Of a DNA stretch of 64,000 nucleotides, positions 46,124 to 51,014 are shown piece after piece. The position numbers were made by a program, and so were the translations under genes. Each line of letters begins with the position of its first letter. Position 1 is the first letter of the stretch. The DNA is from an uncultured Planctomycetota bacterium (GTDB lineage: Bacteria > Planctomycetota > Phycisphaerae > Tepidisphaerales > Tepidisphaeraceae): the NCBI GenBank assembly GCA_963841915.1, contig CAWJEN010000003.1, forward strand, positions 1 through 64,000, in the 5' to 3' direction. The notes under the pieces are model-generated. The model saw only the letters and a list, made by a program, of their open reading frames with translations, had not been told where the DNA came from and searched no databases.

Positions 46124-49100
46124 TCAAAGCTTCGCCAGATCCGCCTCGGCTTTGGCAAGCTGATCCCGCGTCTCTTGCACCAAGTGCGGGGGAGCCCGAT
46201 CGGTGTACCCCTTGTTGGACAAGCGGCCGGACAAGGCGGCGACCTGCTTCTGAAGCGCCGCCTTCTCCTTGGCGACGCGGTCGGCGTCGGCGGCCTTGTC
46301 CACGACGCCGCCGACGCGGATCGTTGTGTCGGCAGCCGTCGTTTCGGCCGCGTCCTCGACCGTCTCCTTCACCTCACAGTTGGCCCAAAGCTCAAGGGTC
46401 TGGCGCACATCGTCGGCCACCTCGACCGCGACCGGCACCGTCTGTCGCGGCGGTACCTTGTTCTCCGTTCGCACGCGACGCACCGCCTCGGCGATCTCGC
46501 GGACCCGCTCGATCGACGCCTCGGCCGCTTCGTCGGCAAACGTCACCGTCGGCCAGGCGGCGGTAATGCACCGCTCGTTTGCCGGCAAGTCGATGACGCC
46601 TTCGATGCCGCGCGTGGGCATGGCTTCGTTCAGTGCCCACCAAAGGCGTTCGCTGACGAACGGCATGATCGGGTGCATCAGTCGAAGCGCGCCGTCCAGG
46701 CAGGCCGCCAACGTCGCAGCGGCGGCGGCATCCTGGGCCTTCATCCGCGGCTTCGTCGACTCGACGTACCAGTCGCAGAAGTCCCGCCAGAAGAAGTCGT
46801 AGATGGCCGTCGCGTATCGGTCAAAGCGATAGTCGGCCAGGGCCGCGTCGCATTCGCGGACGGCCGCGGCGAGGCGCGACAGGATCCACCGGTCGGCGGT
46901 GGTCAGATCAATCTCGCCTGTCACATCGGCGTTGTGCAGGTTCGAGATGACAAACCGCCCGGCGTTCCAGATCTTGTTGGCAAAGTTGCGGCCGTGATCG
47001 AACTTGCTGCTCGTTGTGCCGGCCGCGGGTCGGTCGTCGGTCGCCGTCGCTTCACCGCTGGCGATGCCGTATGGGCTGACGCTGTGCTTGCCTTTGTGCT
47101 CCTGGATCGGCTTGAAGACGGTGTAGCCGCTGTTGTTGGTGAAGGTTTGGCCCGGGAAGGTCTCGCCGGTGTGCGGGTCGACGAGGTCGACGGGCAGGCG
47201 GACGTCCTGCGTGTGGGTCGTCATGCCGCAGAGCGTGAACCGCATGGCGTCGGCGCCGTGGGAGTCGATGACCGCCAGCGGGTCGACGCCGTTGCCGAGC
47301 GACTTGCTCATCTTCTGGCCGTGGCCGTCCTGGATCATCGCGTGGATGAAGACGTCTTTGAACGGCAGGTGCGACGCGTCCGCCCCACGCGGGCCCCGAC
47401 CGTGAGGGAGGGGTTCTGAATGAAGTTCTGAAAGGGTCGCTGGATCGAGTTCTGATGTCTGGCGGTCGTCCAGAACCCCTCCCTGACGGTCGGGGCTCGC
47501 GTGAGACTGTTCGACATCTTTTTTCGAGTCGGAGCGCTGCTCGTCGGGGTGGGCGAGGAGGTAGCGGTTGAACATGACCATCCGCGAGACCCACAGCGTG
47601 ATGATCTCGCGTGCGGTGCACAGGACGCTGGTCGGGTTCCACTGCTCGAGCGCGGGCGTGCGGTCGGGCCAGCCGAGCGTGCTCATCGGCCACAGGGCAC
47701 TGGAAAACCAGGTGTCGAGGACGTCGGGGTCCTGCTCAAATCCTGCCTTGTCCAGCTCACCAAGGAACTTGTCCGCATTGCTTGGGACGGCGTACTGGTA
47801 TCCCCACGAGCTGTCCGCTCGGCGATAGGAGTAGTACGGCGCGATGCCGTGCGGATCATCGGGATCGCCGAACGTGAGTTCATTGGGTTCCGTGCTCTCG
47901 CCCGGATCGAGGTCGCTCTGGTAAAGCGCCGACTGTGACCCGCTCCACACCGGGATCCGGTGCCCCCACCAAAGTTGGCGGCTGATGCACCAGTCGCGGA
48001 GGGCGGCGTTCCACTGCGTGTAGGTCTTGGCGTACCGGTCGGGCACGAACCGCAGCACGTCGTCGCCCAACGCGAACGATCCCTGCGAGCCCCGACCGTC
48101 AGGGAGGGGTTCTGATTCTGAGCGAGCCCCCGACACCCCTCCCTCACGGTCGGGGCTCGCATCGCTCTCGACGCTCTCGACGGACGCGGGGTTGAGCGGG
48201 CGCCCCTGACGATCGACCGTGTACCGGATCGCCCCCTCAACCGACCCCGACGTTTTGAGATAGCGCGTGCTCCCGTGACGGGTCCAGACCTTGCGCTCCC
48301 CGTCGACGAGCGACTCCTCTCGAAGACGACGCGTCGCGTACGCCTTGAAGTCCGTCATGACCTTCTCCGGCGTCGCGTCGGCCGACACGACGGCGTGCAG
48401 GTGGTTCGACCGCACGTGCAGCGCGTGAAGCGTCCAGCCGCGGTGTCGGCAGACGTCGACGATCGCGTCTTGCACCGTAATCCGCTGGGCCTCGTCGAGC
48501 TCCGTCGGCTCATGCTTGAGGCGGGCGAACTGGCGACGCTCTTCGTCTTCGTCGCCAACGAGGTAGGGCTCGCCCGGGATGTTGTGTCGTTTGGGGTCGG
48601 CGCTTCCGAGCTCGCGACCCTGGAGCCAGGTTCCGTAGGTCGTGAACGTGATGAGATACGAGAGGGTCTCCCGCGAGCCCTGAGCGTGAGCGAGGGGTTC
48701 TGAGCGAGAAGCGGAATCCCCTCCCTCACGGTCGGGGCTCGCGGGGATTTTCTCGCATCCCGTCAGTGCGGTGAGTGCGAGACCTGCGAGCGAATTCGCC
48801 GGGACGTCGGTGCCCTCGACCTTGCCGGTGTCGGGCATCCACGGAATCGGCTTCTGGACCGCGACGTACCACTGGTCACTCAGGTACGGCTCGACCGGCA
48901 CGTGGCTGCGGTAGCTGTGGCCGACGCTGTGGCGGTACGGGCGGACCTCCTCGAGCAGGTCGTGCTCCTTGAACCACGAGACGATCGCCTCGCGGGCGGC
49001 CTCGCGGGAGAGGCCGACGAACTGCCTGGCGGCGTCGGTCTCGGGCGTCCAGCCGTGTGCGTCGGAGATCGACGCGTCGGGGGCCATGATGTTGATGGCC

Positions 49101-50155
49101 GCAAGGCTGTGCCGCTGGCCGATGTCCCAGTCGTTGGGATCGTGAGCGGGCGTGACCTTCAGGAAGCCGGTGGCAAACTTGGCCTTGGGGTCGCTTTCAT
49201 CGCTCGGCATGACCACGTAGTCGTCCTCGACGATCGGGATCTCGCGGTCGACGATCGGCAGCAGGACCTTCTTCCCGCGCAACCCCGCCGCCCTCGGGTC
49301 GTTCGGGTTGATGGCGACGGCGGTGTCGCCGAGCATCGTCTCGGGACGCGTCGTGGCGACGACGACATACTCGAGTTCTCCGTCGCGAGCCCCGACCGTG
49401 AGGGAGGGGTCCGGGTCGCTCGAGGAAGACCCCTCCCTCACGGTCGGGGCTCGCGAGGTGCTCTCGGGTCGGGTCTCGTTCAACGGCGCGAGCGGATAAC
49501 GCAGGTAGTAGAACTTCCCATCGATCTCCTCGTTCTCAACCTCGTCGTCGGCGAGGGCGGTTTGGGTGACGGGGTCCCAATTGACCAGCCGCTTGCCGCG
49601 GTAGATGAGGCCGTCCTTGAAGAGGCGGAAGAAGGCCTCTCTCACGGCCGCGGCTCGTGGGGGGTCCATCGTGAAGGCGGTGCGTTCGAAGTCGCAGCTG
49701 CAGCCCATTGCCTTGAGCTGGCCGAGGATGACGGTTTCGTATTCGTCCTTCCACGCCTGGACCTTGCCGATGAACTGCTCGCGTCCCGGCTGGCCGGCCG
49801 CTTCGTCGAGCTTGTAGTCCTTCAGCGCCTTCTCACCCGCCGCCTGGAGCCGTTTGTCGACGACCGTTTGCGTCGCAATGCCCGCATGGTCGGTGCCGGG
49901 AATCCAGACCGCGTTCAGCCCCCGCATGCGGGCGTGACGCACCAGAATGTCCTGGATCGTGTTGTTCAGCGCGTGCCCGAGGTGCAGCGCAGCGGTCACA
50001 TTGGGCGGCGGGATGACGACGCTGAACGGCTCCTTGCTTGCGTCGGGCTCGGCGTGGAACAGCCGCTCGTCGTCCCAAACCTTCGCCACCTCGCTCTGCA
50101 CGGCAGTGGCGTCGTAACGGGGCGGCAGCTCGGTCGTCGGGGTCGTGTCAGACAT
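46124..50155 (-). CDS. valS: Valyl-tRNA synthetase with in-frame REP doublets and an embedded transposase domain
   Basis: PPPNVT.LHLGH (HIGH), ATTRPET, KVTPAHD, WCISRQLWWGH, DTWFSS, KMSKS, DWYVE, C-terminal coiled coil; uninterrupted frame. Confidence 0.96.
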   Translation of the reverse strand: MSDTTPTTELPPRYDATAVQSEVAKVWDDERLFHAEPDASKEPFSVVIPPPNVTAALHLGHALNNTIQDILVRHARMRGLNAVWIPGTDHAGIATQTVVDKRLQAAGEKALKDYKLDEAAGQPGREQFIGKVQAWKDEYETVILGQLKAMGCSCDFERTAFTMDPPRAAAVREAFFRLFKDGLIYRGKRLVNWDPVTQTALADDEVENEEIDGKFYYLRYPLAPLNETRPESTSRAPTVREGSSSSDPDPSLTVGARDGELEYVVVATTRPETMLGDTAVAINPNDPRAAGLRGKKVLLPIVDREIPIVEDDYVVMPSDESDPKAKFATGFLKVTPAHDPNDWDIGQRHSLAAINIMAPDASISDAHGWTPETDAARQFVGLSREAAREAIVSWFKEHDLLEEVRPYRHSVGHSYRSHVPVEPYLSDQWYVAVQKPIPWMPDTGKVEGTDVPANSLAGLALTALTGCEKIPASPDREGGDSASRSEPLAHAQGSRETLSYLITFTTYGTWLQGRELGSADPKRHNIPGEPYLVGDEDEERRQFARLKHEPTELDEAQRITVQDAIVDVCRHRGWTLHALHVRSNHLHAVVSADATPEKVMTDFKAYATRRLREESLVDGERKVWTRHGSTRYLKTSGSVEGAIRYTVDRQGRPLNPASVESVESDASPDREGGVSGARSESEPLPDGRGSQGSFALGDDVLRFVPDRYAKTYTQWNAALRDWCISRQLWWGHRIPVWSGSQSALYQSDLDPGESTEPNELTFGDPDDPHGIAPYYSYRRADSSWGYQYAVPSNADKFLGELDKAGFEQDPDVLDTWFSSALWPMSTLGWPDRTPALEQWNPTSVLCTAREIITLWVSRMVMFNRYLLAHPDEQRSDSKKDVEQSHASPDRQGGVLDDRQTSELDPATLSELHSEPLPHGRGPRGADASHLPFKDVFIHAMIQDGHGQKMSKSLGNGVDPLAVIDSHGADAMRFTLCGMTTHTQDVRLPVDLVDPHTGETFPGQTFTNNSGYTVFKPIQEHKGKHSVSPYGIASGEATATDDRPAAGTTSSKFDHGRNFANKIWNAGRFVISNLHNADVTGEIDLTTADRWILSRLAAAVRECDAALADYRFDRYATAIYDFFWRDFCDWYVESTKPRMKAQDAAAAATLAACLDGALRLMHPIMPFVSERLWWALNEAMPTRGIEGVIDLPANERCITAAWPTVTFADEAAEASIERVREIAEAVRRVRTENKVPPRQTVPVAVEVADDVRQTLELWANCEVKETVEDAAETTAADTTIRVGGVVDKAADADRVAKEKAALQKQVAALSGRLSNKGYTDRAPPHLVQETRDQLAKAEADLAKL
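47386..47503. repeat. REP doublet 4 inside valS (solo)
   Basis: 33-bp arms 47386-47418 and 47471-47503 with 2 mismatches; encodes ASPDRQGG...PLPHGRG. Confidence 0.9.
48084..48161. repeat. REP doublet 3 inside valS (downstream flank of the transposase domain)
   Basis: 27-bp arms 48084-48110 and 48135-48161 with 1 mismatch; encodes ASPDREGG...PLPDGRGS. Confidence 0.9.
48670..48745. repeat. REP doublet 2 inside valS (upstream flank of the transposase domain)
   Basis: 28-bp arms 48670-48697 and 48718-48745 with 3 mismatches; encodes ASPDREGG...PLAHAQGS. Confidence 0.88.
49383..49456. repeat. REP doublet 1 inside valS (solo)
   Basis: Perfect 29-bp inverted repeat 49383-49411 and 49428-49456; encodes RAPTVREG...PSLTVGAR. 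Confidence 0.92.
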
Positions 50156-51014
50156 GAGAACGAACCAGCGTAGAGCGACCGCCAATGCCTCAGCCGATAG
50201 GCTGGCGACGTTGGACCCGCTTCACGTCGAGATCGAGAAGGCACCGCTGCTGAGCATCGGCCTGCCGCAGACGCTTCGGGCGATGAAGGCGACGCTGCCG
50301 ATCAGAGGCAACCTGCCGCCGAACGGGTTGCGGATCGTGCATCTGAGCGATCTGCATCTGCGCAACCACGTCCCGCCAGCGCTGCCTTGGCTTGCGAAGC
50401 GACTGGCAGCTGATCCGCCGGACCTGATCCTGATCACCGGTGATTTTGTCGACGACAAGGTAACCTGTGACGCGACGCCGACGCTCGCCAAAGCCGCAAA
50501 CCTCCTGCGGCCGATGGCAACGCTTGGTCTGTTCGGCTCGATCGGCAACCACGACGGTGACCTCATCGCCGCCCGGCTCGAGGCAGCAGGCATTGTCCCG
50601 CTGCACGGCCGACGCGTGCGCGTGGAGAATCGTGGCTTCCCCGTCGAGCTTCTCGGTCTGCCGGGCACCACGCGGTACGAGTGGCCGGGCGTCAGCACGT
50701 TGTCGCGAAACCCGGCCGTGCCGCTGATCGTGCTGGGGCATTATCCCGACGAGGTTCGCCGCGTGCTGCCGCTGAGGCCGTCGCTCTACCTCGCCGGTCA
50801 CACCCACGGCGGCCAGATCGCGATGCCCAAGGTCGGCCCGCTGCTCACCCACGACGGCCTTCCCAAGCATCAAAGCAGCGGCATCCATCGCTTCGACGAC
50901 ACCTGGCTGAGCGTCTCCCGCGGCATCGGGACGACGCGACTGCACGCCCGCTTCCTCTCGCCTGCCGAGTACGGCGACCTCACGCTCGTGGCCGCTGACG
51001 AAGCGCAGGCCTGA
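50145..51014 (+). CDS. Calcineurin-like metallophosphoesterase
   Basis: LSDLH, TGDFVD, GNHD, AGHTHGGQ, SRGIG; true start probably downstream of the valS start. Confidence 0.9.
   Translation: MSDMRTNQRRATANASADRLATLDPLHVEIEKAPLLSIGLPQTLRAMKATLPIRGNLPPNGLRIVHLSDLHLRNHVPPALPWLAKRLAADPPDLILITGDFVDDKVTCDATPTLAKAANLLRPMATLGLFGSIGNHDGDLIAARLEAAGIVPLHGRRVRVENRGFPVELLGLPGTTRYEWPGVSTLSRNPAVPLIVLGHYPDEVRRVLPLRPSLYLAGHTHGGQIAMPKVGPLLTHDGLPKHQSSGIHRFDDTWLSVSRGIGTTRLHARFLSPAEYGDLTLVAADEAQA

Follow-up and report, generated by a model that had tools for sequence, protein, structure and literature searches.

In-frame REP doublets and a predicted class 3 HUH-Y1 transposase domain within the valyl-tRNA synthetase gene of an uncultured planctomycete

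How can one uninterrupted reading frame hold an essential aminoacyl-tRNA synthetase, a transposase domain and eight copies of a palindromic repeat? The question is raised by valS, the gene for valyl-tRNA synthetase (ValRS), in a 64,000-nucleotide stretch of DNA (the window) from an uncultured member of the Planctomycetota (Phycisphaerae; Tepidisphaeraceae; assembly GCA_963841915.1, contig CAWJEN010000003.1, positions 1-64,000, forward strand). The genome studied, G000, is a 3.63-Mb assembly that is 94% complete. Repetitive extragenic palindromes (REPs) and their inverted pairs (REPINs, REP doublets forming hairpins) are presented in textbooks as repeats outside genes, and their transposases as genes that stand alone. 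We propose, with a probability of roughly 0.7, that valS carries an in-frame cassette composed of a REP doublet, a class 3 HUH-Y1 transposase domain and a second doublet, plus two non-autonomous REPIN-like doublets at other sites. The valS case is one instance of a genome-wide and class-wide habit of class 3 transposases and REP doublets lying inside reading frames.

The valS frame and its inserts

A whole-genome search of G000 recovered a single valyl-tRNA synthetase gene. Its product scored above the NCBIfam cut-offs for ValRS (NF004349, 935.8 bits against 704; TIGR00422, 805.8 against 612.1), and Pfam placed tRNA-synt_1, Anticodon_1 and Val_tRNA-synt_C domains in the open reading frame (ORF), together with a Y1_Tnp match at residues 567-635. 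The HLGH and KMSKS signature motifs were intact in the translation. An ATG at 50155 is a likelier start than the TTG listed in Table 1 and gives a protein of 1343 aa, the length of the public gene call.

We scanned the window for the 25-mer repeat at up to three mismatches, with 100 shuffles as background. Eight copies were found where the shuffles predicted 0, and no further copy lay elsewhere in the 64 kb at this threshold. The copies pair plus-then-minus into four inverted doublets at three sites, all within the valS frame, which remains open through each of them. An earlier note on this DNA, made from the sequence alone, had described just this arrangement, with an unbroken frame of about 4 kb and no copy elsewhere in the window. 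It had also given spacers of 16, 20, 24 and 52 bp; between 25-mers we measured 20, 20, 26 and 62 nt, using different arm ends. The palindrome exceeds the 25-mer by about 5 nt in some copies (GGGG-TTCTG...CAGAA-CCCC), and spacer figures therefore vary with the choice of arm ends. One arm of doublet 2 is a GAGCGTGAGCGA variant with a compensatory change in the stem. When folded as single-stranded DNA, the doublets form long hairpins of -29 to -40 kcal/mol, with z scores of -7 to -9.

Table 1. Positions of the features discussed in the text (window coordinates unless a contig is named)
Feature	Position	Strand	Details
valS	46124..50185	-	1353 codons from TTG, no internal stop
Solo REP doublet 1	49385..49454		Two perfect 25-mers, 49385-49409(+) and 49430-49454(-), 20-nt spacer; translated SRAPTVREGSSSSDPDPSLTVGARD; directly before VVATTRPET
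REP doublet 2, upstream flank of transposase domain	48673..48742		25-mers at 48673-48697(+) and 48718-48742(-), 20-nt spacer; translated PASPDREGGDSASRSEPLAHAQGSR
Predicted class 3 HUH-Y1 transposase domain (RAYT-like)	48190..48670	-	160 aa, without its own start or stop codon
REP doublet 3, downstream flank of transposase domain	48085..48160		25-mers at 48085-48109(+) and 48136-48160(-), 26-nt spacer; translated DASPDREGGVSGARSESEPLPDGRGSQ
Solo REP doublet 4	47389..47500		25-mers at 47389-47413(+) and 47476-47500(-), 62-nt spacer; translated HASPDRQGGVLDDRQTSELDPATLSELHSEPLPHGRGPRG; directly before LPFKDV and the KMSKS strand
Class 2-type RAYT gene	G000:C6:1462938-1463678		246 aa; motifs YHVLNR, PNHWHLVL and YVEQNARRAGL

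When the protein was compared with Thermus thermophilus ValRS (1GAX), the three insertion sites appeared as unaligned gaps between alignable blocks, at residues 204/209 (doublet 1), 363/379 and 503/510 (doublet 4). The same sites are hot spots of length variation among 14 aligned ValRS. The inserts thus probably lie in variable ValRS loops, in line with the earlier suggestion of tolerant loops, and the doublets, read through in frame in the sole valS, would add new peptide sequence, as had also been proposed. In the ValRS of G005, G007, G012 and G014, the loops that house the solo doublets here hold long, unrelated repeat-like peptides (for example PSPGTPGEGGG ... PHPNPLPxYRGRG), so other repeat families may use the same ValRS loops.

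For comparison among relatives we used G003 and G004, which belong to the same genus as G000, and G009, from another genus of the same family. All three carry the domain at the same valS site, between the LAG(L/A)AL helix and LRF.P.RYAKT. Ten other aligned relatives have ValRS frames of 963-1173 aa with no transposase domain at that site. The valS cassette is old and maintained.

These comparisons bear on one alternative, that valS is a dead gene or an assembly artefact. Frame breaks in the assembly at PutA, FumC, CstA and an ABC ATPase would fit such an account, as would G001, whose valS carries the domain yet is split into three pieces with TGA stops. Against this, valS encodes the sole ValRS of a 94%-complete genome, its 1353 codons are open with the HIGH and KMSKS motifs intact, and the same architecture recurs in G003, G004 and G009, which were assembled independently, and in over 50 public ValRS clusters. 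The ValRS core also has a dN/dS of 0.21-0.30, a Nei-Gojobori estimate that is rough because dS is saturated. We regard a dead or artefactual valS as scarcely credible.

The embedded domain and its repeat

The transposase domain has no in-frame start codon near its beginning and no stop after its end, and a genome search found one copy in G000. Pfam PF01797 (Y1_Tnp) matched it with 26.0 bits on the whole protein, against a gathering cut-off of 23, and with 30.6 bits in the genome search. Its motifs are NHLH (HuH), VWTRHGS and YTVDRQ (Y----Q). In a 52-sequence alignment, H90 and H92 of the domain are invariant and Y150 is kept in at least 90% of sequences. Across a wider set of 257 homologous domains, none of the 58 ValRS-embedded or 36 AlaRS-embedded homologues has lost either HuH histidine, the Tyr or the Gln. 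The dN/dS of the domain ranges from 0.08 to 0.45, comparable with the equally rough values given above for the ValRS core.

According to the pertinent sections of a published survey, class 3 TnpA-Y1 enzymes occur mainly in Planctomycetes, carry the motifs NHVH, W[TA] and YV[VI]xEQ (Y----Q), and lie between multi-copy hairpins whose 5' foot is CnGA (Quentin et al. 2018, PMC6006769). The embedded domain resembles the enzymes described there in its NHLH, WT and YTVDRQ motifs, in its planctomycete host and in the multi-copy foot-plus-hairpin sequences on both sides. NHLH, VWTRHGS and YTVDRQ fit the class 3 motif set when compared with the published motif table, as distinct from its profile, and the homologues of the domain mostly read NHVH and YV..xQG. 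The domain scored similarly weakly against the models for IS200 transposases and for REP-associated tyrosine transposases (RAYTs), as expected of a class between them, and a profile search returned the IS200-type transposases 2f4f and 2ec2 as nearest solved relatives, both weak (E 1.6e-4 and 5e-4). On the strength of its motifs, host phylum and flanks, the domain is predicted to be a class 3 TnpA-Y1 HUH enzyme. The 'RAYT-driven' process of the earlier note remains a suggestion drawn from co-occurrence, single-copy status and intact catalytic residues; the enzyme is a class 3 Y1 type that falls below the NCBIfam RAYT cut-off. It differs from the class 3 enzymes of the survey text in being read inside valS with neither start nor stop codon.

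The repeat that flanks the domain has a recognizable structure. One 25-mer is predicted to fold as .....((((..((....))..)))), with a 5-nt foot followed by CCCC, GA, CC, the loop GTGA, GG, GA and GGGG. Among 51 distinct copies from five genomes (G000, G001, G003, G004 and G009), two stem pairs covary (CG 32/GC 12 and CG 29/GC 15), and the tandem G-A mismatches of the stem are conserved. In G000 the foot reads GCGAG or ACGAG, whereas G004 and G009 have CAGAG; of these, CAGAG fits the CnGA foot quoted for class 3 and the G000 variants do not. The 25-mer is thus an imperfect palindrome with a conserved single-stranded foot, and the doublets are inverted pairs with a short spacer, present in many copies, of the same REPs that stand beside a single-copy Y1 transposase. 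The 25-mer has REP anatomy and the doublets have REPIN anatomy, as the earlier note had recognized, and the extragenic location usual for both is the feature that they lack (see below).

The repeat is also permissive in coding terms. The forward arm encodes ASPDREGG or RAPTVREG in two frames and contains TGA in the third, and the reverse arm is open in all three (PLPHGRGS, PSLTVGAR and PPSRSGLA). Because the doublet is palindromic, the same peptides result from either orientation.

Spread in the genome and among relatives

Across G000, we detected 44 copies of the 25-mer family at up to three mismatches and 48 at up to five, while a reversed-pattern control gave 0. The 48 copies make up 25 loci, comprising 23 doublets and 2 singles with spacers of 19-62 nt, and 15 of the 48 match the consensus exactly, at dispersed loci. 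For the genic and intergenic counts, genes were called by a home-made procedure as ORFs of at least 100 aa with coding-type GC3, giving a crude coding fraction of 0.84. Seventeen of the 25 loci lie inside such ORFs, and Pfam added FumC and CstA, bringing the genic count to 19. ValRS hosts four loci, CarB and PutA three each, and an amine-oxidase/CrtI-like protein two; HrpA, LysRS, an amidohydrolase, a vWA/YfbK protein, two GNAT-like proteins, FumC and CstA host one each. The six other loci lie just upstream of groEL, argH or an ABC ATPase gene, or between genes. Proliferation is therefore not 'local', as first supposed, but extends over the genome and largely within genes.

Sixteen of the 19 intragenic loci are cleanly in frame. 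In PutA, the two parts of the Pro_dh profile match (positions 2-194 and 195-277) meet precisely at the doublet. Lengthening the C5 run that closely precedes this doublet by a single C would restore the frame, which points to a possible assembly error. The ABC ATPase gene near a single REP is frame-broken. The rpoB frame, the sole one looked at for background frame breaks, is intact. Frame changes lie about 30-270 nt from a REP copy in PutA (C6:1470900-1471170), FumC (C4:136780-137130), CstA (C3:107070-107367) and the ABC ATPase gene (C6:1154353-1155042), and may be either assembly errors or real damage.

The retention of frame speaks to a further alternative, in which the inserts are removed before the mature protein forms, either at the RNA level, through splicing or processing, or through protein splicing of the intein kind, leaving a ValRS of normal size. 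The very stable doublet hairpins could serve as processing sites, and frame changes near doublets in three host genes would be harmless if the inserts were removed at the RNA level. However, the frame is kept at 16 of 19 intragenic loci and is open through both REP flanks in about 100 embedded homologues; RNA-level removal would not require an open frame, and its conservation argues against such a process. The PutA frame change, moreover, lies outside the doublet, beside a homopolymer. We consider removal of the inserts very improbable.

G000 also encodes a class 2-type RAYT (Table 1), whose gene is ringed by its own 27-nt repeat, with 45 copies arranged in arrays and nearly all intergenic. 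Only 3 of these 45 copies fall in crude ORFs, compared to 35 of 48 for the 25-mer family. This RAYT was considered as the mobiliser of the 25-mer and rejected, as a different repeat surrounds the gene and no 25-mer lies within 7 kb.

The presence of individual doublets varies among close relatives. In aligned ValRS, doublet 1 is present in G000 only, with a decayed remnant in G004 and absence from G003 and G009, and doublet 4 is present in G000 and G003, decayed in G004 and absent from G009. The LysRS doublet, which falls at the end of the first block alignable to solved LysRS, is present in G000, G001 and G002 and cleanly absent from G003, G004 and G009. CarB doublet 1 is present in G000, G001 and G003; G009 has a different, longer insert and G004 has no match there. 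CarB doublets 2 and 3 each occur in some of G001-G003, are decayed or absent in others, and are absent from G009. The solo doublets are young, and the two transposase-free valS doublets of the earlier note are present, decayed or absent among congeners. At up to three mismatches, the 25-mer was found in 8 of 41 related genomes; it is multi-copy only in genus g1 and in G009, whose embedded transposases are the closest, and REP variants differ between genomes alongside the divergence of their transposases. At the left junction of the G000 LysRS doublet (C6:890700-890770), a 12-nt unit that resembles the REP foot region is repeated about four times (translated SDARSDAKSDAKSD). Upstream of embedded transposases in other genomes, too, REP-forward peptides often occur in tandem.

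These patterns also bear on whether the domain has been co-opted for a host function, or is trapped and no longer mobile, with doublets that spread by recombination or gene conversion or are simply old and harmless. Two genera have the cassette fixed at a single valS site, as expected of a domesticated domain; element ends and a target site could not be defined from alignments of filled and empty LysRS and CarB sites; and in the published accounts that address it, RAYTs are single-copy and vertically inherited. In contrast, all 94 copies embedded in aminoacyl-tRNA synthetases retain the catalytic His, Tyr and Gln, 15 of 48 REP copies equal the consensus at dispersed loci, doublet presence differs among congeners, and REP variants differ between genomes along with transposase divergence. 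Domestication or trapping is, on balance, unlikely. The earlier note had held that inserts fixed at the same positions in distant relatives, with no copies elsewhere, would count against its reading. The first half of this applies to the cassette, which is fixed in two genera, whereas copies abound elsewhere and the solo doublets are polymorphic.

Embedded homologues, proposed mechanism and known systems

A length-restricted search returned 122 long proteins with the domain, of which about 58 are ValRS and 36 AlaRS. Other long hosts include HrpA helicases, DUF1156 methylases, a GlnE-like protein, a Gfo/Idh/MocA oxidoreductase and NTP-transferases. Their source labels read Phycisphaerae, Phycisphaerales or Planctomycetota, and one source name is 'alanyl-tRNA synthetase/REP element-mobilizing transposase RayT'. 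A ValRS of 1481 aa with the domain is on public record for the Phycisphaerae isolate RAS1. An exhaustive search gave 2513 cluster representatives, the nearest of them embedded; at 40-50% identity, most homologues stand alone as proteins of 150-260 aa that have a Met and a stop of their own. A REP-forward-type peptide occurs within 120 aa upstream in 88 of 117 embedded copies and a PLPxGRGS-type peptide downstream in 82 of 117, so the transposase sits inside a REP pair. Judged from these sequences, the short doublets look like transposase-less derivatives of the REP-flanked transposase.

On a FastTree phylogeny of the domain, the ValRS host label changes 12 times over 58 rows, compared to 52 when labels were shuffled, and the AlaRS label 6 times compared to 34. 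In a class sample of 301 genomes, 59 have a close homologue; 17 of those 59, spread over nine families, hold it in a frame that runs for 500 codons or more without a stop (19 of 84 matches). Two stop-free frames each contain two copies of the domain, one of 1686 codons (G244:C11:69580-72204) and one of 1555 codons (G155:C2:2581708-2583390).

We suggest the following mechanism for the cassette and its doublets. The whole valS frame would be translated, and the transposase domain would be made solely as part of ValRS, with the Gly/Ser/Pro/Asp/Arg-rich peptides encoded by REPs acting as loop or linker sequence that the enzyme tolerates. The domain would cut and join REP hairpins on single-stranded DNA and thereby spread the doublets, a role suggested by their co-occurrence, its single-copy status and its intact catalytic residues. 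In needed genes, the surviving insertions would be those that keep the frame, a requirement eased by the open frames of the forward arm (two of three) and the reverse arm (all three) and by a palindromic doublet that reads the same both ways. A place inside an essential gene may give the transposase expression as well as protection from deletion. Since most other repeat copies are in frame in ordinary genes, the mobile element would live inside proteins rather than between genes.

Several points weigh against this reading. Translation of the whole valS frame is deduced from conservation of the frame, and surface exposure of the inserts from alignment gaps and length variability. The gene calls and peptide patterns followed home-made rules, and the patterns came from the very data to which they were applied. 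The domain scored below the NCBIfam cut-offs for both RAYTs (NF047646 REP_Tyr_transpos, 30.1 against 80) and IS200 transposases (NF033573, 30.8 against 55), and the single REP hairpin is no more stable than shuffles (z -0.5). A frame change lies within about 220 nt of the doublet at PutA doublet 1, FumC and CstA. DNA alignment of filled and empty LysRS and CarB sites gave ragged boundaries, and neither clean element ends nor a target motif or duplication emerged. On the domain tree, host labels cluster without being monophyletic. The domain dN/dS between G000 and G004 is 0.45, subject to the same saturation of dS, and between G003 and G004 the dN of the domain is 0.48 compared to 0.13 for the ValRS core. 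The G004 domain has thus diverged much further than the ValRS around it, and its inheritance is not purely vertical; this suggests that the cassette in G004 has been replaced or is fast-changing, and the G004 REPs differ too.

A broader proposal may be entertained tentatively, at somewhat less than even odds. A clade of class 3 transposases in the Phycisphaerae may no longer be a gene, but exist only as a read-through domain in essential enzymes such as ValRS, AlaRS and HrpA, joined by REP-encoded linkers and still mobilising doublets that colonise coding sequence about as often as chance allows. Such a clade would be a steady source of new loop sequence, with the loops of essential genes as its safe harbour.

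The arrangement shares features with several known systems. In the passages of Bertels and Rainey (2011, PMC3116915) and later papers that describe them, REPINs are inverted REP pairs in extragenic positions and the RAYT is a separate class 2 gene. The present system is similar in its many inverted REP pairs with a short spacer, its single-copy Y1 transposase flanked by the same REPs, and a largely vertical inheritance in which each REP variant is matched to its own transposase. It differs from those descriptions in that 19 of 25 loci are genic and the enzyme is of class 3 type and embedded, whereas the canonical RAYT of the same genome has an intergenic repeat. Rickettsia palindromic elements in frame in genes are said to have been described by Ogata et al. 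in 2000. In the corresponding parts of the survey by Di Nocera et al. (2013, PMC3733652), in-frame intragenic REPs are most numerous in Opitutus terrae (PVC group) and Rickettsia conorii, with tRNA synthetases among the hosts, while most REPs are intergenic and the transposase is never part of the host protein. Those intragenic REPs, like the ones here, are short palindromes, often dimers that encode 20-30 aa, in frame in housekeeping genes such as tRNA synthetases and repair genes. The foot here is different (not GTAG or CGTC), and the transposase lies within the host protein. As far as its text goes, the class 3 survey set over-long 'fusion' proteins aside (Quentin et al. 2018, PMC6006769).

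Published work therefore covers intragenic REPs as well as class 3 enzymes, and the embedded read-through arrangement is apparently undescribed. Our literature search, which did not extend to the papers' supplements, found no description of an aminoacyl-tRNA synthetase with a Y1 transposase in its reading frame, and none of the papers listed joins Phycisphaerae with these subjects.

Inteins with homing endonucleases are selfish, nuclease-coding elements in frame in essential, highly expressed genes, from which they are hard to delete. The valS cassette is comparable in being a putative selfish nuclease element in frame in an essential gene whose expression it would borrow. Unlike inteins, it has no Hint domain or conserved junction residues, it occupies variable loops and not active-site motifs, and the insert is apparently kept in the protein. 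An intein was rejected as an identity for the inserts: no Hint or intein family was among the seven Pfam families matched, and the junction residues are REP-encoded and vary between copies. A self-splicing intron was likewise rejected, with no group I or II intron among nine Rfam matches (E of at most 0.1), all of them hairpin look-alikes below gathering scores.

The transposase here would take its promoter, start codon and stop codon from the gene of an essential aminoacyl-tRNA synthetase. If the domain is active, it would represent a third route by which a selfish element hides in an essential gene, beside inteins and introns, as well as a working example of transposition making protein sequence in bacteria and a natural design for placing a folded nuclease domain in a loop with self-encoded linkers.

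The arrangement has practical consequences as well. Gene callers and domain surveys drop or mislabel such 'fusions', and the repeats break short-read assemblies at housekeeping genes. Short-read assemblies of the congeners G002, G003 and G004 often end inside CarB, LysRS or valS (for example at the end of G003:C60, at the start of G004:C20 and in G004:C42). With contigs ending inside REP-bearing genes, the REP repeats fragment housekeeping genes in metagenome bins.

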